From: Pirellulales bacterium
GTDB lineage: Bacteria > Planctomycetota > Planctomycetia > Pirellulales > JADZDJ01
Assembly (NCBI GenBank): GCA_963719205.1
Contig: CAVRAW010000005.1
Location: forward strand, 280,958 to 344,957
DNA length: 64,000 bases
Reading direction: 5' to 3'
Shown piece after piece: positions 6,988 through 41,985 of the stretch (the first letter of the stretch is position 1; every line of letters starts with the position of its first letter). A program made the position numbers and the translations under genes. Below the pieces are notes generated by a model that worked only from the letters and a program-made list of their open reading frames with translations, had not been told where the DNA came from and did no database searches.

Positions 6988-7691
6988 ATTGCCGCGCGCC
7001 GCTCGTCGAATTCTGCCTTCTGCCTTCTGCTTTCTGCCTTTTGCACCATTCGCAACCGCCCCTCTTCCATCCGCACTTTCCCCAATCCAATCAACCGCAG
7101 TGCTTCCGGATACGCTTCGCACTCGGCCTCAAACACGCGCGCGGCCAAAGTGCCCGGCGTGTCATCATCGAGCACCGCCACCCTCCGCTGCAAGATAATT
7201 GGCCCATGATCGTACTGGTCATCCACTAAATGCACCGTGCAACCGCTGATTCGCGCCCCCGATTCTAGCACCGCTTCATGCACCCGCGCACCAAACAATC
7301 CCCGCCCGCAATACCCGGGCAACAGCGCCGGATGAATGTTCGTCACGCGGTTGCGAAAATCCGCCGGAATCAATACATGTTTGAGAAAGCCCGCCATCGC
7401 TACCAAATGCACACCCGCTTCGCGGCACCTCCCAAACACCGCCTCGCTATATTGTTCCGCGGAGACATCGTCGCTCGGCGCCTCCACAAGCGCCGCAATG
7501 CCAGCCTGCCGCGCAATTTCCAACCCCGGCGCCTTGGATGTGCTGGAAACCACCAATTCAATTCGTGCATCCAGCCGTCCCGCGCAAATGCATTGAATCA
7601 AATTCCCCAGTGTCCTCCCCTTGCCGGAAATTAAAACCGCCAATCGCAAGGGGGAAACAGCCTGTCCGAGTGTGAAGGACATGCCAGTCAT
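6981..7691 (-). CDS. purN: phosphoribosylglycinamide formyltransferase
   Basis: [27 protein letters not shown] and [17 protein letters not shown]. The start ATG overlaps the ileS stop (ATGA). The last ~20 codons are encoded by a TTCTGCC heptamer array. Confidence 0.9.
7011..7045. repeat. heptamer array TTCTGCC x4-5 at the convergent GNAT/purN 3' ends
   Basis: ttctgcc ttctgcc ttctgct ttctgcc ttttgca. It encodes the purN tail [11 protein letters not shown] on the minus strand. Confidence 0.75.
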
Positions 7692-10600
7692 TTCTTCACA
7701 ATCCGCAAATACAGTTGCGAAACGTCGTCGCCGACTTTGATTTCGCTCGCCTCGGCCCCCTCAATCGGCCCCGCTCTTAGAACAGTCGCCAGCGTTTCGC
7801 CGCGAATGTAATCGCCGAAATGGTCGATCGCGCGGCGAATCTCCGCCGACTCGCTTCCGATCCCCACCTCAATGCGGTCCGTATATTCACAATCCCGGTC
7901 TTTGCGGCAATTCTGAATCGCATGCACAATTTCCCGAGCCACTCCCTCGGTCACCAACTCCGGAGACAACTCCGTTGCCAAAACCACCACGCAGTCCTTG
8001 CCCTGCGCCGCCGCCCAGCCCGGCTTGGCCTGCAGGCGCACCTGCAAATCATTGCGGTCCAGCATTTCGCTGCTGCCGTCGTCCAACTTTAGCGAAACGC
8101 TCCCCGCTTTTTCCATTTCCGCAAGCAGCTTGCCGGCGTCCGACTTCGCCAATGCATTTTTCACCAGCGGCAACTTCTTGCCCAGCCGCGGTCCAAGCCG
8201 TTTCAAATCCGGCAGTACGGTATAAGTGATGTACTGCTCCGCCTTTTGCGTGAACTCCACATGTTTGACATTTAGCTCTTTACGCAACAGGTCGAAATGA
8301 TCCTCCAGCCATGCTTGTTGGCTTCGATCCGCCAGAATCACCTCCACCTTCCCCAGCGGCTGCCGCACCTTGAGCTTTGCCCCCATCCGTGCCGCCAGGC
8401 CCAGCGACGCAATCTCGCGCACCAGGTTCATCTGAATCGAAAGCTGCTCATCGATCGCTGCCCGATCCCCCGTGGGAAAATCGCACAGATGAACGCTTGT
8501 AGCGCTCATGGCTTCACCGCCTGCTGCTTGCTGCCTGCCGCCTGCCAGATTTTGCCACATCGCCTCCGCAATGAACGGCACAAACGGCGCAATGATTTTG
8601 CACGTCGTGATCAAACACTCGTACAGCGTCCAATAAGCGTCCAACTTGTCCGGATCGCGCTTGTCTTCCGCCCAAAACCGATCCCGGCTGCGCCGCACGT
8701 ACCAGTTCGAAAGCGCATCGACAAACTCGATGATCCGCTGCGCCGCCGCATAGTTGTCGTAAGCATCCATCCGCTCCACGACCGCCGCCGCCGTGCGATT
8801 CAATTCGCTCAAGATCCAGCGATCCAACTCCGCCCGCTCTTTGATTGGTCGAGCCGATTCGTCCCCCTGATTCTTGACTCCTGATCCCTGACTCCTGGGA
8901 TCAAATCCATCGATATTCGCGTAGATCACAAAAAAGCTGTACACATGCCACAGCCTTAACAAGAATTCCGGAATGCTGTCGCGGATCGCCCGCTCGCTAT
9001 AGCGGATCGTGGTCCACGGCGGCTGCGTGGCAAAAAAGTACCACCGCAACGCATCGGCGCCGTACTTGTCAAAAATCTCCGCAGGCTCGCGGTAATTCCG
9101 CTTGCTCTTCGCCATCTTCTGCCCGTCTTCGCCCAGCATCAGCCCCAGCACAATGCAATTGCGAAACGGCCGCGGAATCGGCTTGTCGAACACCAGCGTC
9201 GAAATCGCCAACTGGCTGTAAAACCACCCGCGCGTCTGATCGAGCGCCTCGCTAATGAAGTCGGCAGGAAACTGCTCATGAAATTTCCCGGCAGCGGCCG
9301 CGCGGCTGCCTTCCGTCGTTCCGCCTTCCGCCTTCCCCCTTCCGCCTTCCCCTTGATATCCCCACTGTGCAAACGGCATCGCCCCGCTGTCGTACCAACA
9401 GTCGATCACATCCGGCACGCGCCGCATCGTGCCGCCGCACTCGCACGAAAACAGGACAGCGTCGATATACGGCTTGTGAACTCTCAAATCGTCGATAAGC
9501 TTCGGATTTGCCTTCTTCGCCTTCTCCCACACTTCCGTTCCTGCAATTCCTGGCTTCCTAATTAATTCTTCGTAATTGCTGATTGCCGACTGCTGATTGC
9601 ACTTCTCGCATTGCCAGATGGGAAGCGGCGTGCCCCAAAATCGCTCCCGCGAAAGCGCCCAATCGACATTTGTCTCCAGAAAATTCCCGAACCGCCCTTC
9701 CTTGATATGGTCCGGCAGCCAGTTGATATGCCGATTATTCTCCAGCATCTGTTCCTTAAACTGGCTGGTTTTGATGAACCAGCTCCGTCGCGGATACTGA
9801 ATCAGCGGATCCTCCTCCGCCCGCCAGCAAAACGGATACTCGTGCCGATATTCTTCGCGATGAAACAACAACCCGCGCTGTTTCAAATCATGAATAATGT
9901 CCTTATCGCATTCCTTCACCCATCGCCCGCGGCAATACTCCGGCCCTTCATCTGTGAATTTGCCGTCCGGCGCTACGGAGCAAATCAGTTCCAAACCCGG
10001 GCCGTCTTCAAATCGACTGCGTTCATGGATCAGCACATCGAAATCGACTTCGCCAAACGCCGGCGCTTGATGCACTACCCCCGTGCCACTATCAATGGTG
10101 ACAAATCCGGCGCTGACCACGCGCCAAGCAATGTACTCCTTGCCATCGCCTTTTAATTGTCCCTGTGCGGACCCCAGCGAACGATAGTAATTGTCAAACG
10201 GCGGCACATACCGCAGCCCGATCAGTTTCTGTCCTTGAATCTTTTTCTCAACCTTGAATTCCCGCTTCACTTTCCCCGCGATCGCCTCCACTAGCGCGCT
10301 TGCAACAACTAACTTTTCCGTCGCGCCCGTCGCGTCGTTGTCGTCCACAACAACTGAATACTCCAACTCCGGATGCACCGCCGCAAACTGATTGCTCGGC
10401 AGCGTCCACGGCGTCGTCGTCCACACCAACAAACTCGCGCCGTCCAAACCCAATTCCTTTGTGCGCGCATCTGACACCAACGGAAACTTCACATACACGC
10501 TCGGGTCCGCCACCTCCCGGTAACCCAACCCCACCTCGCCGCTCGAAAGCGCCGTCCCCCCTGCGCCCACCACCAAACAATCTTGTGCCCCTGATACAAC

Positions 10601-21856: not shown

Positions 21857-21860
21857 GTGG

Positions 21861-21955
21861 AAATTAGGATTTCTGATTTAGGAATTAGGACAGAAATCTC
21901 GGATCGCCATCCTTTCAAATCCTACATCCTAAATTCTAATTCACAGATTCTTACA
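21861..21955. repeat. phased heptanucleotide array in the rpoZ/coaC intergenic region
   Basis: gatttct gatttag gaattag gacagaa ... aaatcct acatcct aaattct aattcac agattct, all with a 7-nt period. Confidence 0.65.
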
Positions 21956-23720: not shown

Positions 23721-23752
23721 GGACGCTCCGCAGATGGACAGGATGCTAAATT

Positions 23753-24289: not shown

Positions 24290-24318
24290 GAACTCACTTC
24301 TCCTCAGCCGCGTCTGCT

Positions 24319-25074
24319 TCAACAACAGCTCGCGATGATTCCCAAAAAATCGTCCGCCACCAAACTCGCCCCGCCGACCAACGCTCCATCGATATTCGGC
24401 TGGCTCATCAACTCGCCGGAATTCGACGGCTTAACGCTGCCGCCGTACTGAATTCGCACGGCCTCCGCAACCTCTGCATTGTAGCGGTCTCCGATTAGCT
24501 TGCGAAGATCGGCATGCACTTCCTCCGCCTGCTCCGGCGTGGCGACTTTCCCCGTGCCGATCGCCCACACCGGCTCGTAAGCAATCGTCGTTTTCGCCAT
24601 GTCCTCCGGCGAGATCTCCGCAAACGACTCCTCGAACTGGCTGCGAATCACCTCCATCGTGCGCCCCGCTTCGCGCTCGTCCAAATGCTCCCCCACGCAC
24701 ACAATCGGCGACAATCGCACCGCCAGCGCCGCCTTCAATTTGCGATTCACTTCGGCGCTCGACTCATGAAAAATGTCCCGCCGCTCGCTGTGTCCCAAAA
24801 TCACATACTTGCACCCGCAATCCAACAGCATCCCCGGGCTGATCTCCCCCGTGAACGCCCCCTTCGCCTCGTGACACAGATTTTGCGCTCCCAGCGCCAC
24901 CGGCGACCCGATCCGCACCTTTTGCACCGCCTCCAAATAAACAAACGGCGGGCACAGCGCAACATCGACGTTCGGGAAATCCTTGGCTCGCTTCACCACC
25001 GCCTCCGCTAGCGCCACCGCCCCGGCCCGATCCAAATTCATCTTCCAATTCCCGGCAATAAATTTCTTACGCAT
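24319..25074 (-). CDS. tpiA: triose-phosphate isomerase
   Basis: [25 protein letters not shown] and QYGGSV. Confidence 0.92.
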
Positions 25075-25087
25075 TTCTCACGCTCGT

Positions 25088-25114
25088 CCCATAAAGCCGC
25101 GACCGTCGGTCGCG
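25088..25114. repeat. hairpin repeat element family C, intergenic copy downstream (minus strand: upstream) of tpiA
   Basis: CCCATAAAGCCGCGACCGTCGGTCGCG with stem GCGACCG/CGGTCGC. It is near-identical to 30428..30455 inside clpB. Confidence 0.75.
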
Positions 25115-25211
25115 CAAACTTGCCAAGAGAGTCACCAGAATAAGAAACTCACGCACAGGCGCAAAGGCGTAAAGAAGTCGATTTTGCCCGCTGCCCGCAG
25201 CCGGCCGCCGG

Positions 25212-26332
25212 CTACTCCGCCGCCGCCGCCTTGGCATAAGAGCCCAGAATATTCAGCCGCACCGCCCGCCGCGCCAGCGCCTCCGTCGCCCGCACCACTT
25301 TCTTGTCCTGCTGATGTCCTTCCATTTCGACGAAGAACAAATAGCCCCCCTCAGGCCGCGCAATCGGGAACGATTCAATCCAAGTCAGATTCAACTTATT
25401 GCGCTTGAATATATTCAGCGCCTCAGCCAGCGACCCCGGCTTGTGCACGACCTCGAACATCAGCGCCGTCTTGTCGCGCCCCGTGCGCGGACCCGAATGC
25501 TGCCCAATCACGGCAAACCGCGTCAGGTTCCCCTGCTGATCCTCAATGTTCTCCGCCAAAACGCTCAGCCCGTGATGCGTCGCCGCCTGCACGCTGGCGA
25601 TCGCCGCCGCCCCTGGCTTCTCCTTCGCCAACTGCGCCGCCGTCGAAGTGCTGGTCACCTCGATCGTCCGCGCCTGCGGCAAATGTCGCGTCAACCAGTT
25701 GCGACATTGCGACAATGCCTGCGGCCGACTGTAAACTTCCTGCACTTCACTCCGCTGGCACTGCCCCAACAAGCAATGATGAATCGGCAAATTCACCTCG
25801 GCACAAATCTGCACCGGCAGCCGCGTGAACATGTCCAGCGTGTCCGCAATTCGCCCATCCGTGCTATTCTCGATCGGCACCAGCCCATAGTCGCAGTGCC
25901 CGCGATTCACTTCCTCGAACACCGCCCCGATGCTCGCCACCGGCACATATTCCACCGTCTGGCCAAACCGCTGAATGGCCGCCAAATGACTATAGGTATA
26001 CGCCGGCCCGAGATGGGCGATGCGAAGCATCTTTTCCAAAGCCCGCGAGCCGCTGATGATCTCCCGAAACGCCGCCTGCAAACATTGGTTCGACAGCGGC
26101 CCATGATTGTGCCCCGTCACCCGCCCCAGCACTTCATCCTCGCGCACCGGATCGTACGCCCGCTGACCATTCTGCTCTTTTACCTTCCCAATCTGGTGCG
26201 CGAGCTTCGCCCGCTCATTCATCCGCGAAACCAACTCCCGGTCGATCTTGTCTATCTTCGGCGCAGCCCCGCCACGGTCGGAGTTCGAGCAGACGTTTTG
26301 GAGGCCGCCTTCGGCGGCTTACGTTTGGCCAT
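25212..26332 (-). CDS. pheA: bifunctional chorismate mutase/prephenate dehydratase, frame broken near 26260
   Basis: The prephenate dehydratase core carries LGPAYTYSH, ENSTDG and LTRFAVIG, followed by an ACT domain. The chorismate mutase helix 1 (..LRPKIDKIDRELVSRMNERAKLA) is complete only if the ATG at 26332 (MAKRKPPKAASK..) is joined across a missing C near 26260. Confidence 0.88.
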
Positions 26333-26793
26333 GATGCGTTAGCGAAGTGCCGAATGAGGAGATTGCCCGGCGACAGGCGTTTCCCCTGTGTACTGGAACG
26401 AATTCGATTTCTCAATGATATTTCGCAATTTCCCGCCGTTCGCGCGCATTCTCGGCGCATTAACTCGCCTTCTTAATCCCGCCGCCGGCAAAACCCCTTG
26501 CACCGCCGGCCAACCTTCCCGCCAAACCGTGCCAATCTGGCAGCCCTTATCTTCTCCTCAAAGATAGGTCCGCCCCCATTTTTGGCAGCCTCCTCGCCAC
26601 AATCCCCACCGCATCCTACACTTACGAAACGGCCACCTCGCCGGAAACCCCCGGCACGGCCTTTGCTTTCTTTCCGTAAGTCGTTCTATCCGACAGTCAT
26701 TCTCGCAGTACGTACATCAATCGCAATTCTAACCGGCAATCGTTGGCCCTTTGATGGCCGCCAACCACACGCCGAAATAACAAGGAGTTGTTC

Positions 26794-28719
26794 ATGGCCT
26801 CCGGCGAAAAAATCATCGGCATCGATCTCGGCACCACCAACTCCGTCGTTGCAGTGATGGAGGGCAAAGAAGCCAAGGTCATCCCCAATCAAGAAGGCAA
26901 CCGCCTCACGCCGAGCGTCGTGGCCTTCACCGACAAGGGCGATGTCCTGGTCGGCGAACTCGCCCGTCGTCAGGCCGTCACCAACCCCAAGAAAACCGTC
27001 TACTCGATCAAGCGCTTCATGGGTCGCCGCCACAGCGAAGTGGCCAGCGAAGAAAAGATCGTCCCCTACCAGGTCGTTGGCGGCGCCGAAGACTACGTGA
27101 AAGTCAAGGTCGGCGATAAAGAATACACGCCCCCCGAAATCTCCGCCCGCATCCTCCGCAAGCTGAAGGAAGCGGCCGAAGCCTACCTCGGCCACAAAGT
27201 AAACAAAGCCGTCATCACTGTGCCGGCCTACTTCAACGATTCCCAGCGTCAGGCCACCAAAGACGCCGGCCAAATCGCCGGCCTCGAAGTCGCCCGCATC
27301 ATCAACGAACCCACCGCGGCCGCGCTGGCCTACGGCCTCGATCGCAAAGAACACGAAAAGATCGTCGTGTTCGATCTCGGCGGCGGCACGTTCGACGTCT
27401 CCGTCCTCCAAGTGGCCGACGGTGTGTTCCAAGTCATCAGCACCAACGGCGACACGCACCTCGGCGGCGACGATTTCGACCAGGTCCTCATCAACTACGT
27501 CGCCGACGAATTCAAAAAGGAAAACGGCATCGATCTCCGCAAAGACCCCATGGCCCTGCAGCGCCTCCAGGAAGCCTGCGAAAAGGCGAAGAAAGAACTC
27601 AGCTCCGCCAGCAGCACCGACATCAACCTGCCCTTCATCACCGCCGATGCCAGCGGCCCCAAGCACCTGCAATTCAACATCACCCGCAGCAAGTTCGAAC
27701 AATTGGAAGATTCGCTCTTCGAACGTTGCCGCGGCCCGGTGCAGCAGGCTCTCAAAGACGCCAAGCTCGAACCCAAAGATATCGACGAAGTCGTCCTCGT
27801 CGGCGGCTCCACCCGCATCCCCAAGGTGCAGGAGCTCGTCCAAAAAATGTTCGGCGGCAAGGAACCGCACAAGGGCGTGAATCCCGACGAAGTGGTCGCC
27901 GTCGGCGCTGCCATCCAGGGCGGCGTCCTCGCCGGCGAAGTGCAAGATGTGCTCCTGCTCGACGTCACCCCGCTCTCGCTGGGCATCGAAACCGAAGGCG
28001 GCATCTTCACCAAGCTCGTCGAACGCAACACCACCATCCCCACCGAACGCAAGCAAGTCTTCAGCACCGCGGCCGACAACCAATCCGCCGTCACCGTGGT
28101 GGTCTACCAGGGCGAGCGCCCCATGGCCCGCGATAACCGCGAGCTCGGCCGCTTCAACCTGGAAGGCATTCCGCCGGCCCCGCGCGGCATGCCCCAAATC
28201 GAAGTCAAGTTCGACATCGACGCCAACGGCATCGTCAGCGTTACCGCCAAAGATTTGGGCACGGGCAAAGAAGCCAAGGTCCGCATCGAAAACGCCAGTT
28301 CCATCCCGAAGGACGAAATCGAAAAGATGCGCCGCGACGCCGAATCGCACGCCGAGGAAGACAAACGCAAACGTGAACTCGCCGAGTTGCACAACCAAGG
28401 CGAATCGATGGTCTTCCAATTGGAAAAGATGATCAAAGAGCAAGCCGACAAGTTGAAGGAATCCGACAAGGCCGCCTTGGAAAGCGCGATGGGCAAAGTC
28501 CGCGATAGCATCAAGGGCGATAACGCCGACACCATCAAATCCGCCATCAGCGAACTTGAACAAGCCTCGCACGCCTTCACCAAGCAGTTGTACGAAGCCG
28601 CACAAGCCGCAGCCGGCGGCGCCGCAGGCGCAGCTCCCGAAGGCGCCCCCGCCGGCGACGGCAAAAAACCCGGCGAAGAAGAAGCCATCGACGCCGAATT
28701 CGAAGTCAAGAAAGAGTAA
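26794..28719 (+). CDS. dnaK: molecular chaperone DnaK (Hsp70)
   Basis: AAGGAG lies 6 nt upstream of the ATG at 26794. [18 protein letters not shown] and [10 protein letters not shown]; 641 aa. Confidence 0.97.
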
Positions 28720-28748
28720 TCGACCCAACCGGTCGGCAACACATATTT

Positions 28749-28779
28749 AGCCCCCGGTGATAACACCGGGGGCTTTTTG
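28749..28779 (+). terminator. rho-independent terminator downstream of dnaK
   Basis: Perfect 11-bp stem AGCCCCCGGTG / CACCGGGGGCT with loop ATAA, followed by TTTTT, 30 nt after the dnaK stop. Confidence 0.8.
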
Positions 28780-28807
28780 CTTTACCTCTCACCCCTCACT
28801 CCCACCA

Positions 28808-31552
<2,745 letters not shown>

Positions 31553-31577
31553 CCTTTGGTCAGTTCATGGAGGATTC

Positions 31578-32238
31578 ATGACGGTAAAAACCCAATCGGA
31601 AGCAGCATTCGAGCAAGCTTGTCGCTCCTTCGGTATCAAGATCGAACCAATCCCACGTGCCGTCAACCAATCGCCCGACTGCAAAATCTACCTCTCGGGC
31701 AACTTGGTTTATGCTGAAGTCAAACAATTTGACCTGAACGAAGCCGAAAAACGCGCGTTAGAGGAAATGCGATCCAAGGGCTGTAGCGCATACTGGCCGA
31801 GAGAAGATTGGCGAATCCGATCGAAAATCCATGAAGCGAACTCACAATTAAAATCCCTGACCGAGAGCAAATATCCCGGGGTGGTGATCCTCTTTGTCGG
31901 TTCGTCTATTGGAAGTTTCGACTCTGAGGACATCCACGCGGCGATGTATGGAAGCGAATCCTGCAGTTTTGCGGTCCCAAGAAACGGTGCCGGGGAAACT
32001 GTGCCTCTCGGAAGCGTCGCTTGCTCCAAATGGCACATGTAGAGCTCAAAGGCATACGACAACCAGTGCCGTTGTTTCGCTTTGGCGACTAGACACATCG
32101 CAATTCCGCATGAATTTCTATCACAACACTTTCGCGAAGAACCCGGTCACACCCGACTGGTTGCGGTGTGATGGAATTCAACACTTCACATCAAAACGGC
32201 CCGACGAAAACAAGCTCCCTAATTGGGTGGCGATTTGA
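31578..32238 (+). CDS. hypothetical PD-(D/E)xK nuclease-like protein, frame probably broken near 32025
   Basis: GGAGGA lies 3 nt upstream of the ATG at 31578. SEAAFEQACRSFG..SPDCKIYLSGNLVYAEVKQ fits the E...PD...(D/E)xK restriction-endonuclease-fold pattern. The ORF stops at 32042, but the overlapping frame continues plausibly (..TSAVVSLWRLDTSQFRMNFYHNTFAKNPVTPDWL..) to 32238. GC is visibly lower than in the flanks. Confidence 0.5.
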
Positions 32239-32266
32239 TAGGACGATTATCTAAAAAAGGGAATTT

Positions 32267-33154
32267 ATGCAGGACGTAGAAAAATACGCGCCGCCGACAG
32301 AGACTCTGGGCGATCAAGTGCATGCAGTCGCACGTGCCGCACTAGGCGCAATACCGTATGCGGGAAACGCGGCTTGTGAGCTGCTCCAAAAGATCGTCGC
32401 GCCGCCGATCAAAATACGAATTAACGACTGGATGGAAAACATAGCCGACGGTCTCAAGAGACTTGAAAACGAGCAACGGTGTAAAATCGAAGACCTTGGC
32501 AAAAACGATGCGTTTACGGACACGATTATGTATGCAACGCAGGCGGCCGTGCGCACATCCAAAGACGGAAAGCGAAAGGCCCTCCAAAATGCAGTGTTAA
32601 ACTCTGCCCTGCCAAATCCACCGGACGAGACCTCGAGACAAATGTTCTTGTCATTGGTAGACACCTTCTCCGAATTGCACTTGCGTTTCCTCGCAATTTT
32701 TCAGGACCCGCCAAGCTGGCTTGCGGCAAACAACAAACCCATTCCTACTAGAGAATCAAGGACGCTGTGGGAGCTTGTGTCATACATATTTCCAGAATTG
32801 AAGGATCAGCGAGCAATAGCCGAACAAGTCTGCAAGGAATTGCATAACCGTGGATTATTGATCGCTGCGTCTTTGAACGAGGAAGTTTCTCGCTACCCTT
32901 ACTTTCCAACTAAACCAATCGAGCAGCAACCCGGATACTACTTCGCAGAAACCCCTGGAATTGGAAATGTCGTTTATTCCGGAAGTCATTCCGCTTTAAG
33001 ACCGTGGACAACCGAACTGGGGAACCAGTTTTTAGCGTTTATATCATCGCCAACCGAACAGCAGCCAGTCACCCTTGCTTCTCGCGCCGGGTGCCATACC
33101 CACGCTCTAGCGTGGGCATGTGACGTCGTCCTGGCTTCCTGCTTTCCTAATTGA
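32267..33154 (+). CDS. hypothetical protein (295 aa), no family recognised
   Basis: Clean ORF in the low-GC islet, 28 nt after the previous gene. Helical N-terminal half (..KRKALQNAVLNSALPNPPDETSRQMFLSLVDTFSELHLRFL..). The last ~12 codons are encoded by a palindromic repeat element. Confidence 0.55.
   Translation: MQDVEKYAPPTETLGDQVHAVARAALGAIPYAGNAACELLQKIVAPPIKIRINDWMENIADGLKRLENEQRCKIEDLGKNDAFTDTIMYATQAAVRTSKDGKRKALQNAVLNSALPNPPDETSRQMFLSLVDTFSELHLRFLAIFQDPPSWLAANNKPIPTRESRTLWELVSYIFPELKDQRAIAEQVCKELHNRGLLIAASLNEEVSRYPYFPTKPIEQQPGYYFAETPGIGNVVYSGSHSALRPWTTELGNQFLAFISSPTEQQPVTLASRAGCHTHALAWACDVVLASCFPN
33094..33119. repeat. palindromic repeat element family B, copy 2
   Basis: CATACCCACGC-TCTA-GCGTGGGCATG, an 11-bp stem with one mismatch, forming the 3' end of ORF 32267..33154. 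Confidence 0.75.
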
Positions 33155-33579
33155 ATCTCGGCTTCTCCGCGCCTCCATGTCTCTGCGGTTCACAATGTTT
33201 TCTGCGTCAAGCCCCGAATTGGCCACCTAGAAATTGGGCCAGCGCCTGTCCTAAACAACACCCAGACGATGCGGCCATCGATATCAGCCAAAGTAGCAGG
33301 ACCGACATAGGAAGTCGCGTCAATGGCGTGCCGACATCGGGAAACCTTTCGCCGCCTGAGGCCGGAGGCAATTCCTCCGGTACACTGAAAGTTCGCTTTC
33401 AGTGCTTTGCCGTGCCACGGGGTTATCGTGCGCGGAACAACAACTCGAGGCGGTCACCATCAGGTACTAACCCAGGGGCTCGTCCGCCAATGTGGCGCGT
33501 CGGGCAGGCAAGCAGCGTGAGCGTGGACTCCGTTCCCGTCACAAGCTTGTCGGCGACGGCTGTTGCAAGTGTAGAAACT

Positions 33580-33615
33580 CCTCTCCCTTTAAGGGAGAGG
33601 CCGGGAGAGGGTAAC
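33580..33615. repeat. hairpin repeat element family D, copy 2
   Basis: CCTCTCCCT-TTA-AGGGAGAGG (9-bp stem) followed by CCGGGAGAGGGTAAC. Confidence 0.7.
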
Positions 33616-33792
33616 GCCTCGCGCGCTATCCGTCTTCCATGCAACCTACGCCCCGTCGCATTTTGAATTCGGCCGGCCCCAACCCTACCGAATGGCCCGA
33701 CCCGCCACGGCGGACGAGCGCCAAATTTTTTTATTGCGACTTTTTGTGCTTTTCGTGGCAATCGCCGCCAATGCCCCTCCGCGCACACATCT

Positions 33793-33876
33793 AACTTGAA
33801 ACATGCAACTTGAAACCTGAAACCCCTTCCGCCTTCCTACTTCCTACATCCTAATTCCTACTTCCGACTTCCACGC
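33793..33876. repeat. phased heptanucleotide tandem array (12 units)
   Basis: aacttga aacatgc aacttga aacctga aacccct tccgcct tcctact tcctaca tcctaat tcctact tccgact tccacgc. Strict 7-nt phase over 84 nt, ending 17 nt before the ATG at 33894. Confidence 0.8.
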
Positions 33877-33893
33877 ATGACCTAAACTTGTCC

Positions 33894-34400
33894 ATGCCCC
33901 TGCACACCCTCGTACTGACCTTCCACATCACCTGCGGCGTCATCGCCCTGACGCTCGGCCTGATCGCCATGGCCGCCGAAAAATCCCGCGGCCTGCACAC
34001 CTTCGTCGGCAACGCCTACCACTGGGTCTACGTCGCCCTGGCAACTTCCGCCTGCGGCGTGGCATCCTTCGATTGGCCGCGGTTGTGGTGGTACGTCCCC
34101 ATCGCGTTGGGATCCTACTCGCTGGCGCTCATGGGCTTCCTCGCCGCCAAAATCCGCTGGAACAATTGGCTCCAGTCGCACCTCTCCGGCCAACTCGGAT
34201 CGTACATCGCCATGACCACCGCGGTGCTGGTCGTGAACTTCGGCAGCGTCTGGTGGGCCTGGATCACTCCCACGATCATCGGCTCGCCGCTAATCGCCTG
34301 GCTCAAGCGCGAAGTCCGCGCCGGCCACCGCCCCAAATACAAATCCACAATCGAGAACACGCTCGCCACGTCCTCGCGAGAATTGCAGCCCGTCAATTAG
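33894..34400 (+). CDS. hypothetical integral membrane protein (4-5 TM)
   Basis: ATG at 33894. Hydrophobic helices LVLTFHITCGVIALTLGLIAMAA, WVYVALATSACGVASF, YVPIALGSYSLALMGFLAA, LGSYIAMTTAVLVVNF and WAWITPTIIGSPLIAWL. Confidence 0.6.
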   Translation: MPLHTLVLTFHITCGVIALTLGLIAMAAEKSRGLHTFVGNAYHWVYVALATSACGVASFDWPRLWWYVPIALGSYSLALMGFLAAKIRWNNWLQSHLSGQLGSYIAMTTAVLVVNFGSVWWAWITPTIIGSPLIAWLKREVRAGHRPKYKSTIENTLATSSRELQPVN

Positions 34401-34574: not shown

Positions 34575-35714
34575 TCAGTCGCGGCCGCGCCGCCCACTGG
34601 CCAGCCGGCCGAGGCCTTTCACATCCAGCGTGCCGGTGATGGTCGTGTCCACGCTAATCGCGCTGCCGGCGGTCGGCGTGACCGACACATTCGTCAGCAC
34701 CGCATGGCCGTTGCCATTAACATCGGTATCGATCGTCCCGACCACCGTGCCGTCGATCGCCACGTCGAGCGTGCTACCTGCCGCCGCGCCGCGCACGTTC
34801 ACGATCAACTTGCTATCGACCGAGCCGTCGCTAAGCGTCCGGCTCAAGAAGATCGCCGTGCCGGTCGCGCCGCTGGCCGAGTCGCTCAGCCGCGAGCGCA
34901 AATGCAACACCGATGTCACCTCGGGGGCAAGCGCAAACGTGCCGGTGGCATCGCCAACGGCAATCGTGCTGCCTTCATTCACGGTGATCGCCGCATCCTT
35001 GAGCACGAGCGACCCGTTGCCGTTGGCATCGGTGCTGATCGTGCCGACAGTGTTGCCGTCGATCATCACAGCGATATCGGTGCTGGCGGCCGTGCCGTTG
35101 ATTGTCACCACCAAGTTCGATTCGGTGTTGCCGTCCTCGGTTTCACTCTTGAACGAAGCCGTGCCGGTCACCGCGCCGGTGGTGTCGGTCAACTGGGTCG
35201 TCAGCTTCACTTCATTTTCATCACCTTCATCATGGCCGGCGGTGCGCACTGCCAAATCGCCAGTGGCAGTGCCCACGGCCACGGTGTCGCCGGCTGCGGG
35301 AGTAACGGCCAAGCTGCCTTTGAGCGCAATTGCGCCCGATCCGCTATCGTCGGTCATGATGGTGCCGACGGCCGTGCCGTTAATATCCACTTCGTAGGGC
35401 GTGTTGGCCGCGGCGCCTTTGATGTTGGCGGTCAACACCGAGGTGGTTGTGCCGTTGTGAGTAATGCTGGTGAACGACACGTGGCCGGTCACGTTGGCAT
35501 CGTTCGGATCGCTGAGCGTGGCGCTCAAAAACGTTCCTTGAATGCTGGCCGAGCCGGCAAGGCGCGACGACGCCAGCACCGCAATATTCGACGTGTCATG
35601 ATGCGAAGCCGCGATGCTCAAACCGGCGGTCACACCAGCGGCGACCGAGCAACCCGACAACATACTGCGCGACTCAAGCTGTTCGAATGCGCGCACAGGC
35701 GAAGAACGTAACAT
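34575..35714 (-). CDS. secreted protein with three ~95-aa tandem domain repeats
   Basis: N-terminal FEQLESRSMLS motif, common at the start of planctomycetal exoproteins. Three repeats follow the pattern L..L.D....TG.A.F.S........L...I.GAAA.T..V.I.G..VGTI.TD..G.G...L.....T...G..I.V...TG. The opposite-strand ORFs look like GC shadows. Confidence 0.65.
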   Translation of the reverse strand: MLRSSPVRAFEQLESRSMLSGCSVAAGVTAGLSIAASHHDTSNIAVLASSRLAGSASIQGTFLSATLSDPNDANVTGHVSFTSITHNGTTTSVLTANIKGAAANTPYEVDINGTAVGTIMTDDSGSGAIALKGSLAVTPAAGDTVAVGTATGDLAVRTAGHDEGDENEVKLTTQLTDTTGAVTGTASFKSETEDGNTESNLVVTINGTAASTDIAVMIDGNTVGTISTDANGNGSLVLKDAAITVNEGSTIAVGDATGTFALAPEVTSVLHLRSRLSDSASGATGTAIFLSRTLSDGSVDSKLIVNVRGAAAGSTLDVAIDGTVVGTIDTDVNGNGHAVLTNVSVTPTAGSAISVDTTITGTLDVKGLGRLASGRRGRD

Positions 35715-36066
35715 GGGGATCCTCCTCTGTTCACAAAGTTCCGTTGACCGCTGGCCACTTTCTGTGGGTTCCGAGTGCTCTGTTCACCCGGCGAGTGGCG
35801 CTGGATCGGCCTTGCCTCTGGCACATTCCCTATAGCAAACCGCACGTCACTTGTGGAAGTTGCCGCGGAATTTTTTCCGAGAAAAGATTCCGTGCATGTG
35901 CAATGACCAGCGGCGTGGTCAAGATAGATAAGCCGCGAGATTTGCAGATAAAGAATATCGCAGAAAAGCTAGTTCTTCCGAGGCATGCCAACGGCATGTG
36001 GAAATGCGCCGCGAGATATTTGATCGCCCGCGCCCTGAACCGCAGCCTGCCAGGCTGAGCGCCAAA

Positions 36067-36261
36067 TTAACGCTTGCGCTCGTCCAAGCCAAGAGTGGAG
36101 ATGATCGTTTCCGCGCCAGGCGTCATGCGGCGAAGCTTATCGGCGATGTTCGCCTTTTCCGAAACGGTGGCTTTCTTCAGCTTCCGCTGAAAGACGACCA
36201 GCTTCTTGCGCCGCCGGCGGCGCCGCTTGATTTCCTGCTTCCGATCGCTGATGCCACCCAC
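36067..36261 (-). CDS. small highly basic hypothetical protein (64 aa)
   Basis: GTG at 36261 gives MGGISDRKQEIKRRRRRRKKLVVFQRKLKKATVSEKANIADKLRRMTPGAETIISTLGLDERKR. Lys/Arg-rich, like ribosome- or nucleic-acid-associated small proteins. Confidence 0.5.
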   Translation of the reverse strand: MGGISDRKQEIKRRRRRRKKLVVFQRKLKKATVSEKANIADKLRRMTPGAETIISTLGLDERKR

Positions 36262-36333
36262 GTGTAGGCTCCTGGGGTCAAAGTGATCTGCTTTTGTAAC
36301 ACGACCGCCATGAAACGTCAACGCATAACGAGG

Positions 36334-36424
36334 AATGACCGATGACCAGTTGCCAATGACCCGCGACAGATTGACCGTTGCCGCCTGTTGGTCACTGGGT
36401 TTTGTTCATTGGTCATTCTGATTA
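36334..36424. repeat. inverted pair of heptamer arrays (AATGACC-type)
   Basis: Left arm: aatgacc gatgacc agttgcc aatgacc. Right arm: ggtcact gggtttt gttcatt ggtcatt, which is the reverse complement of aatgacc aatgaac aaaaccc agtgacc. Confidence 0.65.
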
Positions 36425-36479
36425 GCCCCGAACATTTGACACTTTCCGCTGCTCAAAGCTACAGTTGCGCTATCTTGCC

Positions 36480-36516
36480 GGACGGGTGGCCGAGCGGTTT
36501 AAGGCACCGGTCTTGA
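36480..36516 (+). tRNA. truncated tRNA-Ser(UGA) 5' half (acceptor stem to anticodon), copy 1; not a functional tRNA
   Basis: GGACGGGTGGCCGAGCGGTTTAAGGCACCGGTCTTGA matches the class II tRNA-Ser 5' half (acceptor GGACGGG, D-arm GCC-GAGCGGTTTAA-GGC, anticodon stem CCGGT, loop CTTGA..). The sequence after the anticodon is unrelated: no ACCGG return strand, no T-arm, no CCCGTCC. Confidence 0.75.
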
Positions 36517-36649
36517 TGGCCGAAGCGGCCTGCCCACTGCCGTTCGGAGTCGGATGCGCGATCCGCTTCGGTGGTCGTTGGACTGCGCTAAGGCCCAAGC
36601 GAGCTACAACGCGTCAAATCGCTCGACCAACGATTTATTGGTCCTGGAA

Positions 36650-39010
36650 ATGGAAAATTCCTCTACTTCTACTACGCCACGACAGTCGGGATTTCGCGTG
36701 GTTGCCGCAGGCGCGTTGCTTGCTTTGGCAACCATCGTGGTCTATTTCCCGTCCATGCACGGCGGATTTCTGTTCGACGATGATCAGTTGCTGACGAACA
36801 ACCCACTGATCAAGGCCCCGAACGGCCTCTTTCGTTGTTGGTATACAACCCATCAGTTGGACTATCTGCCCCTTACCATTTCGACGCTGTGGCTGGAATG
36901 GCGACTATGGGGGATGGATCCCACCGGCTATCGTGTTACCAATTTGCTGTTGCATATCGCGGCATGCTTTCTGATTTGGACAGTGTTGCGACGACTATCG
37001 ATTCCCGGCGGATTCCTCGCAGCACTTCTATTTGCAGTTCACCCGGTCAATGTCGAAAGCGTTGCTTGGATTGAGCAACGCAAGAGCACGCTTTCGCTGG
37101 TGCTCTTCTTGCTGTCCATTCTATGGTACCCGATCGACGAGCCGGATCGCGAAACCAGGAAACATGCGTCGGCGTTGGGCGTCGGGCGATGGTACTGGCT
37201 TAGCCTGATGGCGTTCACCCTGGCGATGTTCAGCAAGGGCTCCGCTGCTATTTTGCCGTTCGTATTGCTTTTGATCGTGTGGTGGCGGCGCGACAGGATC
37301 ACGAAACCCGATGTGCTGCGCAGTGCCCCGTTTTTTTTGGTGGCCGCGGTCTTCACGCCGATCATCATTTGGTTTGTTGCGCACGGCGCGACGACGACGA
37401 TTCGCGAACTGACGTTTGGCCAGCGTGCGGCCTGCAGTGGAACGGTCGTGTGGTTCTACCTGTGCAAGGCATTGATTCCAATCCGCCTGTTGTTTGTCTA
37501 TCCGCAATGGCAAATTGACGCTGACAATCTGCTGTGGTGTTTGCCGTTGTTGGCGTCGTTCGTCATCACGGCGGAGTTGATCGGGCGGCAAAATCACAGG
37601 TGGATTCGGCCGATCTTGTTTGCTTGGGCGTCGTACTGTATCGGGCTCAGGCCGGTGCTGGGGTTCACCGATCCAGGCTATATGAGCGTAGCGGCGGTGG
37701 CCGACCATTACCAATACATTTCTTTAATCAGCATCACCGCACTGGCGGGCGCCGCTTGGTACAGGTGGCACCAACATGCTCGGAATATGATCCTTACGAT
37801 GACCGCCGCCACGACGGCAGTGGGCATACTTATGTTTTTGACGTGGCAACAAAGCCAGCTATATGCGGATCCGATTGTGCTGTATGAAGCCACCTTGGAG
37901 CACAATCCCGATTGTTATTTCATCCATAACAATTTGGGCGCAGAGCTCGCAAAGTCCGGCCGCTCGCAAAACGCAATCGGACATTTCCAAAAGGCGATTC
38001 GGTTAAAGCCGGATTACGCCCTGGCACACTTCAATTTGGGGGAAACGCTGCTCGCGTCAGGTCGAGCAGAAGGTGCGATCGAACATTATCGACAGGCGGT
38101 CCGCTTCCAGCCCGATTTTACCTTGGCGTATCATAATTTGGGCAATGCGTTGCGCGATACCGGCCACATCCAAGAGGCAATCGAGTCTTATGAGCGTGCG
38201 ATAGCGCTTGCACCGGCGTTCGCGACCGCTCACTTCAATCTTGGAATTGCCTTGATGCAGGAGCATCAAATCGACAAAGCGATCGAGCAATTCCGACTAG
38301 GCTTGCATTTTGATCCCGACAATGCTGCAGCGCACCACCAGCTTGGCAATGCTCTGCGTGCCGCACACCAACCGCAAGAGGCGGTTGATGAGTACCTGGC
38401 GGCACTGCGATTGAAGCCGGATGATGCCGAAGCGCAAGCAAGTCTGGAAATGCTGTTGTCCGGCCGAAGCCCTGCTGAAGAACCGCTGCATAACGTAGGC
38501 CACTTGACACCGGAGGATCGAAACGCCGTTGCCGCACAATTCAATCTGGGAATTGCCCAGCTTCACGCCGGACATCCAGAAAAGGCTCTGGAGTTCTTTG
38601 AGCGCGCTTTGTCCACGAAGTCCGATATTCCCGAGGTGCAATCGGCGATGGGCGCCGCGCTGGTCATAATGGGCCGATCCCAGCCGGCGCTGGAGCACTT
38701 GCAAATCGCATTGCGACTACGGCCCGATGACGCCGATGCTCAAAATAACCTGGCGTCCGCATTAGGCGCTCTGGGTCGCACATCGGAAGCGGTGGAACAT
38801 TGTCGAGAAGCGGTCCGCCTCCGACCAGCTTTTATCGAACCCTGGAACAATCTGGTAATTTTCTACGATCAATTACGCCAGCCTGAAAAAGCTGTCGCTG
38901 CTGCTGAGAAAGTGTTGGACCTGGCACGCTCTCAGGGAAAAACTGCTTTGGCTGAGCAAATGGAGGACTGGCTGGCTGCGCACCGCGGCGCCATCGAAAT
39001 AGCTCGTTAA
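36650..39010 (+). CDS. TMTC/PMT-like GT-C membrane glycosyltransferase with C-terminal TPR array (intact)
   Basis: ATG at 36650 (MENSSTST). Multi-TM N-terminal half with a first-loop FLFDDDQLL motif, WLEWRLWGMDPTGYR, AVHPVNVESVAWIEQRKS and ADHYQYISLIS. About 11 TPR units follow (AIGHFQKAIRLKPDYALAHFNLG etc). Confidence 0.85.
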   Translation: MENSSTSTTPRQSGFRVVAAGALLALATIVVYFPSMHGGFLFDDDQLLTNNPLIKAPNGLFRCWYTTHQLDYLPLTISTLWLEWRLWGMDPTGYRVTNLLLHIAACFLIWTVLRRLSIPGGFLAALLFAVHPVNVESVAWIEQRKSTLSLVLFLLSILWYPIDEPDRETRKHASALGVGRWYWLSLMAFTLAMFSKGSAAILPFVLLLIVWWRRDRITKPDVLRSAPFFLVAAVFTPIIIWFVAHGATTTIRELTFGQRAACSGTVVWFYLCKALIPIRLLFVYPQWQIDADNLLWCLPLLASFVITAELIGRQNHRWIRPILFAWASYCIGLRPVLGFTDPGYMSVAAVADHYQYISLISITALAGAAWYRWHQHARNMILTMTAATTAVGILMFLTWQQSQLYADPIVLYEATLEHNPDCYFIHNNLGAELAKSGRSQNAIGHFQKAIRLKPDYALAHFNLGETLLASGRAEGAIEHYRQAVRFQPDFTLAYHNLGNALRDTGHIQEAIESYERAIALAPAFATAHFNLGIALMQEHQIDKAIEQFRLGLHFDPDNAAAHHQLGNALRAAHQPQEAVDEYLAALRLKPDDAEAQASLEMLLSGRSPAEEPLHNVGHLTPEDRNAVAAQFNLGIAQLHAGHPEKALEFFERALSTKSDIPEVQSAMGAALVIMGRSQPALEHLQIALRLRPDDADAQNNLASALGALGRTSEAVEHCREAVRLRPAFIEPWNNLVIFYDQLRQPEKAVAAAEKVLDLARSQGKTALAEQMEDWLAAHRGAIEIAR

Positions 39011-39094
39011 CGCTTGCCCGACAACTTGGCCAGTCTGGTTTGAACGATACCTGCCAAATGACTCCAAACATACGAAATGCTATAACCAATTGCC

Positions 39095-39133
39095 CGGACG
39101 GGTGGCCGAGCGGTTTAAGGCACCGGTCTTGAA
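39095..39133 (+). tRNA. truncated tRNA-Ser(UGA) 5' half, copy 2; not a functional tRNA
   Basis: Same 37 nt as copy 1 plus two further loop bases (CTTGAAA), then unrelated sequence. It shares a 39-nt identical block (CCGGACGGG...GGTCTTGA) with copy 1. Confidence 0.75.
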
Positions 39134-39870
39134 ATCGATTTTGCACGATCGGTAGTGCGATCAAGAAAACGCTAATTCACTCGGCAAATCTTGGACAATT
39201 GTCGCTTCGATCGCAAGTGATGGATTGGGCAAAAACGTGGCAATAAATGGCACTTGCGGGTGTCAGTGACACCCGGTCATCGCGGGTGATCCGTCTGTTT
39301 GAATTTGCGGCGCACGGTGAGGGAGCAATCGTGTCATCAAGCAAATCCCCCTAAGTCAGTAGAGTGCAATACTGGCAGAAGCCCGGGAAATGATCCAGAT
39401 AAAAGCCACCTACACCGACGGATTACAGCGAGCTACGGCGTTTCGGCACGTTGGCTCCGTGATTTCCAGCGTCCTTCACCGGCACAAGATGGCGTGTCAG
39501 CTTCGGCCCGGGGATCACGTTTTCACGGAGAGCCCTGAGACACCTAGCATCGGGAAAATTCGCGTCGTCAAGAAAATCGAGAATGTCTTTGACTACTAGG
39601 CTGGCCGCTGGACGATTACCGTCGACCACCCGTCAGGTGAGAATATGCCAGCGGAAAAAGGCCCTGACTCGGATGATATTCACTTTCACTTTGTGTCTCA
39701 CGATCCCGAGGTAAAGCGAAAGCGTGCAAGAATTCCGTCTGTTTGGCTTTCGATTGCCAGCCACAAGCTGTGCCACGAAGCCACCATGCTGCAGACACGA
39801 TTCGGCTCGGACGACAAAATGTCTCTCCCGCGAGCGCGTGTATCATATCGAAGCGAAGCGCTGCAGCTAG

Positions 39871-41985
39871 CTATTCGGGTAACAAGCCCAGTTGAAGCCA
39901 TCCGCGGTCGACGTGCGCATGGGCGACACGAAACCGCTCTCTTCGATCGGATGCAGTCGGCAACGAGAATCGCGACCATACGAGCTCCTCAGCGAGGACC
40001 TTTCCCAGCGTGCGCTGCACGACGGTTCGCAACGCTTGTTGTCGGCCGCTTAACGGCGACTCGTATCCCTCCTCGTATGATAGCGTCTTGACCTTTAGAG
40101 CGCCTTGTCGGATTAGTGCGAGACCGCCGTCTCGTTCCTGGACGTTGTATGTCGCATCGACCATCATCGGCGGGTATTTCACGTCGCCTGATTCGAACGA
40201 TTCGATATGGAATCTGGCGCGGATCTGACCATCGACCAGTTCGGCAGTGCAGGGACGTTTTGAAAACGCAATGTTAAAATTTTGACCGGTATACTTCGGC
40301 GCGGCGACTCGCCAAGCGCTTCGTCGATCACTTGGATCAACTCATTCGCCGTCATTCGACGGCCGCTGAACGCAGTCGTTACAAGACTTTCCAGGGCGGA
40401 TGCGGCGCAGCAGACGAAGACATCCGAATGGCCGTCAAAATCCTGCGTCGGATCGTGATCTGGAATCGAATTGAAACCTACCAGAATCGCTTCCCAAGTC
40501 AGCGCGCCACCCGAGGTCTTTACACGGATCTCGGGAGTTGGCAGATTTGCATAGATGATCGGATCGCGGAACCTTGCGAAATACCACCGATTGAAAGCGT
40601 CGGCGAGTTTTTGGCCTTCCGCGTCCAACCGCGAGGTGACTGAATGGCGAGCCGCGGCTGCACTTTCAGCTTCTGCCATCGGCCGGCGAGCATATGTCCG
40701 CCGAACGGCCTCTTTACGACGGCGGCGGAGTCCGCGAGCGGCGATGTCGGTGTAGACGATGTTCGTCATGGCGCTCGCCTCAGCGGGCCGGGGAACGAGC
40801 CCACGTGCGTCAAGCGTGAACGGCTTGTCACCGGCGAGCGAAGTAGTGGCGCGACTACTCACTCGGACGCCTTCACTGTAGGCGGTGGTCGAGGCGTTGA
40901 CAGTTCCATCGAGTCGCACGGTCAGCCTTCCGACCGCGCTGGACGGAATGGCCTCCAGGCGAGATTTGCCGTGCATGCGACCGGTGCCGAAGGTGCTGGC
41001 GCCCCCGTACACGCCCTGAATCGGATACTGTTCGTCGAGCGACTTCGCCAGATGCGACGCTAACCAATCGGTTCGCAACACGACGATGAGGTTGGGGTGT
41101 GAAAACTTGCGGTAGATGGAGGCAGTTAAGGGTGTCGCCTGACCGAGTCGTTCGCGCTGATTGACGGCGTCAATGATCCTGGTTGCATCCGTTCCGGAGT
41201 CGGACGCGGAAGCGCTCAGCAATTCGGCCAGGTCGTCCCACGCCGACGCGTATTGCGCCGGGGTTTCGTGCGCCCGACGCCCGCGCACTAATGGTATCAG
41301 GGACCGGACGGCCAGAGAGGCCTCGATCAATTCGGCCGCATCCCAGACATCGGCCGCATTGTGCCAGCGCGTTTCTAAAGCGTCGAGCTCTAAAGCATCG
41401 GGGGGGCTGGCGGTCGAAGCGCACGGGCTTCCGGCCAATGCAGGTACAATCTCCACGGATCGTCGGTGCGCCGCAACTGGGGAAATCGCCGTTCTAGGGC
41501 ATCCAGGCGCTCAGTGACCCGCGCTGCGCCTGCCTGACTTCATTGTCCGAGATCGGCGCGTAGGAACGTGCCTTTTGGTGGCACAATTCGGTCCACTGGC
41601 TTTCGGGTATGGGCGTCAGCTCCTGGGCCCGCGCTTCCAGGGCGGTTGCGAGTCGCTGGAACGCTTCCCCGCGAAATTCAGACATGCTCGCCGTGCGCAA
41701 TCGTTCAGCCGCTGAGGCCAAGGGCGCGGGCTCGGCGCGGTTTCCAGCACGTAGCTCTTGCGTTGCGTCGTCCAGATCAAGTTGACGCGTCAGATTGCCC
41801 CACACCGGTAACTGCCCCGTCGTTTGTCGCAGTTGGCGGATTGTAGCCCGTGCATCGCGTGCCGACTGGGTATCGATCTGAGCGCAGGCTGGCTGTTGTA
41901 GAAATCCAAGAGTTAGCAGCGCCATCACGAAAGCAACGGAGGGATCGCGACTCAACCTTCGAGCGATGGATTGCAGCATTTTCAC
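39871..41985 (-). CDS. large hypothetical secreted protein (~700 aa), frame broken about 3 times
   Basis: Signal peptide at 41985 (VAFVMALLTLGFLQQPACAQ). ORFs 41494..41985, 40179..41456 and 39871..40182 connect through short alternative-frame stretches (..LDALERRFPQLRRTDDPW.. and ..ELVDGQIRARFHIESFESGDVKYPPMMVDATYNV..). Shifts lie near 41500, 41415 and 40250. No family recognised. Confidence 0.5.

Follow-up and report, generated by a model that had tools for sequence, protein, structure and literature searches.

What generates twelve heptanucleotide units in a single phase directly upstream of a bacterial gene, and does such a tract persist because it acts there or because it is tolerated? 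The question is raised by positions 33793-33876 of a 64,000-nt stretch of DNA from a Pirellulales bacterium (hereafter the window; positions 280,958 to 344,957 of contig CAVRAW010000005.1, assembly GCA_963719205.1), where 84 nt in the non-coding leader of a gene for a DUF2306-family membrane protein are built of 7-nt units. This main tract is probably a compound heptanucleotide repeat that arose by period-7-biased slippage, and one of many such arrays that are tolerated.

A compound heptamer tract in the leader of a DUF2306 gene

The twelve units of the main tract are AACTTGA, AACATGC, AACTTGA, AACCTGA, AACCCCT, TCCGCCT, TCCTACT, TCCTACA, TCCTAAT, TCCTACT, TCCGACT and TCCACGC, all in phase over 84 nt. 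Identity at a lag of 7 nt was 55/77, with 43/70 at lag 14 and 9-27 at all remaining lags, and the lag-7 value of 55 was equalled by 0 of 20,000 mononucleotide shuffles. Neighbouring units have, in turn, 5, 5, 6, 4, 4, 5, 6, 5, 6, 6 and 3 identical bases out of 7. Because they stay similar across the junction between the two motifs, the phase runs through the motif change; Tandem Repeats Finder (TRF) splits the tract into 33793-33824 (4.6 copies) and 33833-33872 (5.7 copies). The 84 nt comprise 7 G, 32 C, 23 T and 22 A, and runs of three G are absent from both strands of the array, the complement having GG only (TAGGAAG).

The tract and the gene that follows it were compared with relatives drawn from a set of 165 loci. 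The most informative of these, L165 (ERZ25039539 contig_488, 4.25 Mb), is syntenic with the window and 91% identical to it in DNA over window positions 23578-31512. The parts of the locus are as follows.

33793..33824, + strand: heptamer array 1, AACYTGA type, about 4.6 copies (TRF, sequence, unit table)
33821..33834, + strand: junction of the compound repeat, with the transitional units AACCCCT / TCCGCCT and the phase kept from motif 1 to motif 2 (unit identities 4, 4 and 5 of 7)
33833..33876, + strand: heptamer array 2, about 5.7-6 copies of (C)TTCCTA / TCCTACT type, with few G on the mRNA-sense strand (TRF, TCCT-N3 pattern, composition)
33877..33893, + strand: proximal leader, ATGACCTAAACTTGTCC, the sole upstream part conserved in relatives, without a Shine-Dalgarno-like GGAGG (three-way alignment with L165 and L163)
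33894..34400, + strand: gene for a 168-aa DUF2306-family membrane protein, the first gene after the main array (Pfam DUF2306 below the curated cutoff; identical database protein P0121)

An earlier description made from the DNA letters (the sequence-only reading) had claimed twelve phased units over 84 nt, a change half way from AACTTGA-like to TCCTACT-like heptamers, and an end 17 nt before a start codon. All three descriptions hold: the motif change is in phase and passes through transitional units, and the ATG at 33894 is backed by P0121, which is identical across 168 residues and begins at that codon. Conservation before this ATG extends over about 20 nt only (TGACCTAAACTTG..CATG) in the window, L165 and L163.

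Period 7 across the window and its relatives

Period-7 arrays in the window were called by TRF and set against 30 dinucleotide-preserving shuffles of the same DNA. Ten were found, as compared with a mean of 1.27 and a maximum of 4 in the shuffles, which bears out the TRF check that the sequence-only reading had proposed; an eleventh, weaker array lies at 36322-36360. A 28-nt sliding window gave four separate high-scoring regions at lag 7 only. Global lag-7 autocorrelation, which the same reading had named as the measure that would refute it, was flat (0.2518 for the whole window, 0.2549 for its intergenic DNA), and, taken literally, it goes against the claim. However, because the arrays cover <1% of the window the global value is diluted and insensitive, and it was rejected as a test in favour of local array counts.

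For period-7 arrays with 3.5 copies or more, the density per 100 kb was then as follows in the window and in four groups of loci.

Window: 10.9
Metagenome loci whose CoaC shows 65% identity or more: 8.6
Loci whose CoaC shows 45-62% identity: 1.9
Other Planctomycetota loci: 2.1
Other phyla (71 loci, 1.17 Mb): 0.9

By this measure the window is about 10 times as dense in arrays as unrelated bacteria. Periods other than 7 did not exceed 2.1 per 100 kb in any group (in the window, period 6 gave 1.6 and periods 8-15 gave 0). Five loci that were picked via IleRS or DUF2306 homologues, and not via the coaC spacer, contained 10 arrays in about 93 kb. The arrays are not an assembly artefact, as they are present in independent contigs from JGI (Illumina-type), from NCBI metagenome-assembled genomes (MAGs) and from ENA (long-read style). 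The window has a GC content of about 58-60%; its closest ClpB among species-representative genomes comes from Planctomycetota/Pirellulales MAGs (69-72% identity), and relatives of its isoleucyl-tRNA synthetase (IleRS) at 71-79% identity carry a Pirellulales annotation.

The units of the window arrays include TTCTGCC, GCCTGCT, CCTGACT, GCCTTCC, AATTAGG, TGCCCGC, AACCTGA, CTTCCTA, GCGTCGG and GGTCATT, and their sequences are unrelated. The claim that different arrays use different heptamers but share a period is therefore sound for the window at large, but not for the two loci on which it had been based, which have a TCCTA core in common. With 0.58 matches expected, the periodic pattern TCCTNNNTCCTNNNTCC gave 8, seven of them at the main tract and in the spacer between rpoZ and coaC, and at both loci the TCCTA-core units lie on the mRNA-sense strand. 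Elsewhere in the Planctomycetota, TTTCGRA / ATTTCGG arrays occur in several contigs (L003 746-767 and 14629-14660; L085 367-391; L105 5510-5543); this unit contains the palindrome TTCGAA, so that such arrays are able to self-pair.

The arrays had been described as intergenic. This is correct for the main tract, which is non-coding, but six of the ten TRF arrays lie within open reading frames (ORFs; approximate calls) and another one overlaps with the stop codon of pheA. The clear in-gene cases are three loops of a type-2 IleRS (gene 7688-~11112, minus strand, Pfam), the C-terminus of a PurN-like protein and a TPR protein.

9308..9354, - strand: IleRS loop 1 array, sense GGAAGGC, 6.7 copies, encoding a low-complexity 17-residue insert (TRF, alignment)
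8866..8897, - strand: IleRS loop 2 array, sense AGTCAGG, 4.6 copies (TRF, alignment)
8519..8545, - strand: IleRS loop 3 array, sense GCAGGCR, 3.9 copies (TRF, alignment)
7011..7044, - strand: array in the gene for a PurN-like formyltransferase, sense GGCAGAA, 4.9 copies, encoding an 18-20 aa C-terminal extension (TRF)
37166..37188, + strand: GCGTCGG array, 3.4 copies, within the gene for a TPR/PMT_2 protein (TRF)
25185..25213, + strand: TGCCCGC array, 4.1 copies, in the pheA-tpiA spacer and at the stop codon of pheA (TRF)

Alignment of the IleRS with 60 homologues placed hypervariable inserts in exactly these three loops, which are surface loops, and in the nearest clade only (P0001-P0011); more distant Pirellulales enzymes have short loops of a 'PHQG' type. 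One relative, L082 (GCA_035656635.1), carries period-7 arrays in the same three loops with other units (CTGCCCG, CCGCCAG and CCGCCAG), and in L081 loop 1 holds a GGCAGCA array. Unrelated heptamers have thus been born independently at the same permissive sites, as a sequence-blind mutational process filtered by tolerance would give. The loops amount to a natural assay of where in a protein 21-nt-periodic insertions are tolerated. The array-encoded tail of the PurN-like protein is missing from two relatives.

The IleRS frame is broken on the minus strand at 10555-10560, within a run of six G; seven would restore a 15-residue stretch, and a single gene comprises the N-terminal 207-aa ORF (10489-11112) together with the main ORF (7688-10879). 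ArgJ, too, appears truncated (309 aa, 395-397 in relatives), and in related contigs named 'contig_N' the clpB and dnaK genes are split. These are likely to be homopolymer errors of long-read assembly. A 408-nt tandem repeat at 60858-61916 (2.6 copies, 98% identity, TRF), within the large ORF 60374-63154, resembles duplicated carrier-protein-type modules (LDADLEADLGIDSIK motif) and is unrelated to the heptamers.

Arrays also turn over between close relatives. In L165 and L163 the DNA in the corresponding place before the DUF2306 gene is unrelated to that of the window and lacks the main array, which is consequently young and not required for that gene in these relatives. The pheA-tpiA array differs in L165 by one 8-nt unit and by substitutions, and an array upstream of a DUF6800 gene, shared by the window, L165 and L163, differs among them in copy number and unit variants. 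The differences in length and sequence that had been predicted between relatives were therefore seen. In a BLAST search of the window and the 165 loci, 33780-33893 matched only itself.

A period-biased, sequence-independent mutational process, most likely replication strand slippage, would account for such a distribution by generating 7-nt arrays throughout the lineage, which would persist where they are tolerated: in spacers, 5' leaders, the 3' ends of genes and protein surface loops. The main tract would then be an (AACYTGA)~5 repeat joined in phase to (TCCTACT)~6, within the non-coding leader of the DUF2306 gene, the switch having come about through a variant unit that appeared at one end of the array and became amplified. 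Periodicity, enrichment, the spread over coding and non-coding DNA and the turnover between relatives are observations; we infer slippage as the mechanism and near-neutrality of the main array. The common generating mechanism that the sequence-only reading had suggested gains support in this form, biased toward period 7 and indifferent to sequence, since the period is common to many unrelated units and enrichment is confined to it; slippage also agrees with the explanation of heptanucleotide excess that PMC4679880 and PMC4692102 attribute to Mrazek (2007). Templated addition, its other proposal, found no support, and the strict phase is better read as that of a compound repeat with an amplified variant unit than as a sign of a helical-phasing device.

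Inverted pairs, start codons and competing explanations

Two sites in the window hold arrays that face one another as reverse complements.

21857..21950, - strand: rpoZ-coaC spacer with an inverted heptamer pair (TRF, RNA fold)
36322..36418, - strand: second inverted pair, AATGACC/AATGAAC ... four copies of GGTCATT, forming a hairpin (fold -39.7 kcal/mol, z = -3.95)

The first site, between rpoZ (21951-22217) and coaC (21278-21856; both minus strand, Pfam), had been put forward as a second phased array. Its lag-7 identity of 40/88 is weaker than that of the main tract, yet present, and to that extent the claim stands; it is not one direct array, but two reverse-complementary ones (TAGGA/TCCTA). 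Read along the minus strand, which is the sense strand, the arms are of TAGGAT type (5', 21917-21945) and of TCCTAA type (3', 21862-21890), the latter stopping 6 nt before the coaC ATG, and the pair forms a long imperfect hairpin (-26.7 kcal/mol, z = -2.66). The second pair sits immediately upstream of a conserved TTGACG-N17-TACAAA, AGGAG and GTG of the DUF6800 gene. This arrangement (36262-36320, minus strand), promoter-like and ending at the start of a 64-aa product, is nearly invariant in L165 and L163 and partly so in L164, and Shine-Dalgarno sites and sigma-70-like promoters therefore exist in the clade.

In relatives, hairpins in the rpoZ-coaC spacer are built of short tandem units of other sequences: CAGGAAA/TTCCTGS in L082 (-64.3 kcal/mol, z = -6.8), CGCAGAG/CTCTGCG-type arms in L084, L085 and L086, GGGTTCR (3 copies) opposite CCCTGAA (5.6 copies, abutting the start codon) in L091 and L092, and AGTCTTG (8.6 copies) opposite GACTCGA (6.7 copies) in L126 and L127. 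Some relatives have no such spacer, or a small hairpin only, so the hairpin is recurrent and not universal. Further inverted pairs were found in L147 and, between coaC and coaB, in L090, and in the five pairs of leader type the arm adjoining the start codon is the G-poor one. Given how diverse the unit sequences are, complementary units in adjacent arrays are beyond coincidence: either the structure is selected, or changes are copied between arms by palindrome-templated events. The hairpins, whose folding potential was computed, are probably selected at the level of structure, and any role for them is putative. Hairpins that keep the same intercistronic positions while their sequences turn over make an informative pattern. 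At L115 955-1416, a small ORF (~1010-1362) is inserted between coaC and coaB with inverted AATGACG / ATTCGTC arrays on either side. Its product resembles, by eye, the four-helix-bundle protein of 23S rRNA intervening sequences, and the arrays have the look of terminal inverted repeats or of a long stem for processing.

The intergenic region that contains the main tract has further features of its own. A 314-nt segment at 33248-33561, non-coding by codon-position GC, has strong local hairpins (CCGGAGGCAATTCCTCCGG; CACTGAAAGTTCGCTTTCAGTG) and no Rfam match; it is 84% identical to L165 9470-9780, where its orientation relative to the syntenic clpB and DUF2306 genes is opposite, and it is a candidate for an invertible or mobile element, or else for a small RNA gene that lacks annotation. 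A composite dispersed element at 33089-33195 consists of the palindrome CCCACGC-TCTA-GCGTGGG, the heptamer-like units TCCTGGC, TTCCTGC and TTTCCTA, and then CTCCGCGCCTCC..CTCTGCGG. It supplies the final codons of ORF 32267-33154, and L163 has a copy of about 83% identity (5386-5470) immediately before its DUF2306 gene; the unit types of the element also build the rpoZ-coaC hairpin arms in L082 and L084-L086. The segment between clpB and the DUF2306 gene is swapped between close relatives (window 31512-33154, L165 7984-9090), the window having two ORFs without a Pfam match (31512-32042 and 32267-33154) and L165 instead an M48-like peptidase ORF. The segment is a local rearrangement hot spot adjoining the main array. 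No Rfam family matched at the gathering score anywhere in the window, or at E<=5 in 33100-33950, and no transfer RNA or transfer-messenger RNA was found. At about 35000-41000 the skew of the + strand passes from -0.1 to -0.27 on the left to about 0 to +0.14 on the right and the genes from mostly minus to mostly plus, the pattern expected at a replication origin.

Several findings weigh against slippage and tolerance as the whole explanation, most of them as hints of selection. The conserved proximal leader (CCTAAACTTG) also contains both array motifs, AACTTG and CCTAA, although the arrays could have been seeded from this local sequence, or the match could be chance. The sense RNA of 33793-33892 folds at -3.2 kcal/mol, the weakest of 2,556 100-nt windows on both strands (mean -29.3 kcal/mol, standard deviation 7.2); RNA folding found no hairpin in the main array, and the transcript is essentially unpaired. 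At least 10 non-coding arrays in relatives end 20 nt or less before starts, nearly all with more C than G in the sense strand, and inverted pairs with matching units recur far above chance. Slippage is, moreover, deduced, and the preference for 7 nt rests on a published hypothesis and not on a demonstrated mechanism. The G-poor array might accordingly be a functional 5' leader, serving Shine-Dalgarno-independent translation as a structure-free landing pad or as a platform for an RNA-binding protein (S1, Csp or CsrA-like), an explanation that we consider unlikely. Its position 17 nt before the ATG, the want of a GGAGG-like motif in the conserved proximal leader, the TCCTA-core units 6 nt before the coaC ATG and the like placement, without canonical ribosome-binding sites, of TAACTGA repeats in Beggiatoaceae (PMC4679880) are all consistent with it. 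However, the array is absent at the same gene in 91%-identical L165 and in L163, TCCTAA is absent upstream of other window genes and so is not a general leader motif, the clade has Shine-Dalgarno sites (AGGAG before the DUF6800 gene, for example), and no CsrA-like ORF lies in the window. A scan for consensus sigma-70-type promoters and intrinsic terminators gave no match at the main tract or the rpoZ/coaC locus, which leaves the suggested enrichment of arrays near promoters unsupported; enrichment near start codons fares better, the proximity in relatives being suggestive, but it is a lead only, as the sample is dominated by coaC/coaB loci and the start calls are rough. A CsrA sponge, for which the antisense strand (AGUAGGA)n would offer GGA every 7 nt, was left as speculation. 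A wider version of the leader idea would make the heptamer arrays a fast-evolving toolkit of the 5' untranslated region, with G-poor arrays as structure-free initiation or repeat-protein platforms and inverted pairs as intercistronic hairpins that gate translation or provide RNase III sites (for example, at rpoZ, coaC and coaB), structure and polarity being kept while the units turn over; the G-rich arm would lie 5' and the C-rich arm would abut the start codon. This, too, is doubtful. If start-adjacent arrays were functional, they would bear on translation initiation in phyla that use few Shine-Dalgarno sites.

A contingency locus, in which gain or loss of 7 nt reversibly switches or tunes the DUF2306 membrane protein, would fit a hypermutable repeat directly upstream of a membrane-protein gene and the unit-number differences between relatives at other arrays. 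It is quite improbable, as the repeat lies outside the ORF and not demonstrably between -35 and -10 elements, so that no on/off effect is obvious, the host is a free-living planctomycete, and the arrays adjoin housekeeping genes (coaC, IleRS, purN-like and pheA) and not surface-antigen genes. That the tract belongs to a dispersed mobile element, or one akin to repetitive extragenic palindromes or miniature inverted-repeat transposable elements (REP/MITE), is very improbable, even with the 33089-33195 element in the same intergenic region (its TTCCTGS heptamer-like core, its recurrence in L163 and its resemblance to spacer-hairpin arms), the nearby 314-nt element inverted relative to L165, and the L115 arrays that flank an ORF like terminal inverted repeats: in the window and the 165 loci the main tract matched nothing but itself, and its two motifs are direct, not inverted. 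Replication-origin elements, iteron-like or akin to a DNA unwinding element, are hardly credible. The cumulative GC skew has its minimum plateau at ~35-41 kb and gene orientation switches around it, but DnaA boxes amount to 5 scattered one-mismatch matches in 64 kb, none near 33.8 kb, neither dnaA nor dnaN is nearby, heptamer arrays occur throughout the window and within genes, and the main array is absent in the syntenic relative. Array strand and local skew agree in 10 cases and disagree in 8 in relatives, and a tie between array strand and replication strand, considered because unpaired arrays left of the skew minimum are all C-rich on the + strand, was rejected. Period-7-biased slippage with tolerance is thus retained as the probable explanation. 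If the arrays are neutral they could serve as hypervariable strain-typing markers for uncultured planctomycetes, and they carry a warning for annotation, as they lengthen ORFs and create spurious low-complexity peptides.

Relation to known heptanucleotide repeats

Heptanucleotide repeats are the most abundant class of long simple sequence repeats (SSRs) in most prokaryotic genomes, according to the survey of Mrazek (2007) as summarized in PMC4679880 and PMC4692102, and the same summaries give its proposed cause: about 7 nt contact the polymerase, which would favour slippage. The main tract and the other arrays of the window show every testable feature of heptanucleotide SSRs: they are tandem, in excess, biased toward period 7 with diverse units, and unstable between relatives. 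As summarized, the Mrazek class likewise has tandem 7-nt units beyond chance, with period 7 dominant among periods of 5-11 nt, many unrelated units per genome, variation between related genomes and slippage as the proposed origin. It differs in that coding repeats in the survey are mostly multiples of 3 nt, as reported in PMC4679880, whereas about half of the arrays here lie in coding genes. The 7-nt preference of bacterial repeats is a long-noted oddity that is mechanistically unexplained, to which the window adds a dense Pirellulales lineage; what lifts this case above the routine is the large share of arrays in coding loops, their return to the same loops in an essential enzyme, and the hairpins that inverted pairs form beside start codons. 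Full-text searches for papers on heptamer repeats in Planctomycetes returned none, and the phylum-level survey PMC4060949 names this phylum for other pattern types only.

The intergenic arrays of GGGAATC in Xanthomonas and GGGGA(C/T)T in Nostoc PCC 7120 (2-26 units; Rehm et al. 2015, PMC4692102) are similar in that they vary in length and sequence between close species at the same intergenic sites, and some of them are inverted pairs with possible stem-loops (PMC4692102). Those genomes are, however, dominated by one G-tract unit able to form G-quadruplexes, whereas the units of the window are diverse and the main array has no G3. Membership of the G-quadruplex family, which has a G-tract of at least 3 per unit in at least four units, was rejected, as there are 7 G in the whole 84-nt tract.

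The TAACTGA direct repeats of marine Beggiatoaceae, some Cyanobacteria and Bacteroidetes (MacGregor 2015, PMC4679880) have 2-6 copies and lie mostly a few nt before starts without canonical ribosome-binding sites, with some within ORFs. The main array has the same placement, near a start codon that lacks a canonical site, and its first unit (AACTTGA / AACCTGA) resembles TAACTGA. That family, however, has a single conserved unit, related heptamers being rarely repeated there, and the window has many. Membership was rejected: the units here are AACTTGA / AACCTGA and TCCTACT, and no TAACTGA dimer TAACTGATAACTGA occurs in the window or the 165 loci. The STRR heptamers of Calothrix PCC 7601, cited in PMC4692102, are a further parallel. 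They too are heptanucleotides repeated in tandem in non-coding DNA, and several unit types occur in one genome, but they belong to another phylum and differ from the units of the main array, and there is no evidence of common descent. The unit of the 36322-36360 array, TTGGTCA/GGTCATT, appears to be the STRR2 unit.

In compound microsatellites, adjacent arrays of the same period and different motif are joined by intermediate units, and they arise by mutation of a unit and its subsequent amplification; they are usually described for 1-6-nt units in eukaryotes. The main tract is like them in its two motifs, single period and intermediate units, but has a 7-nt unit and lies in a bacterium.

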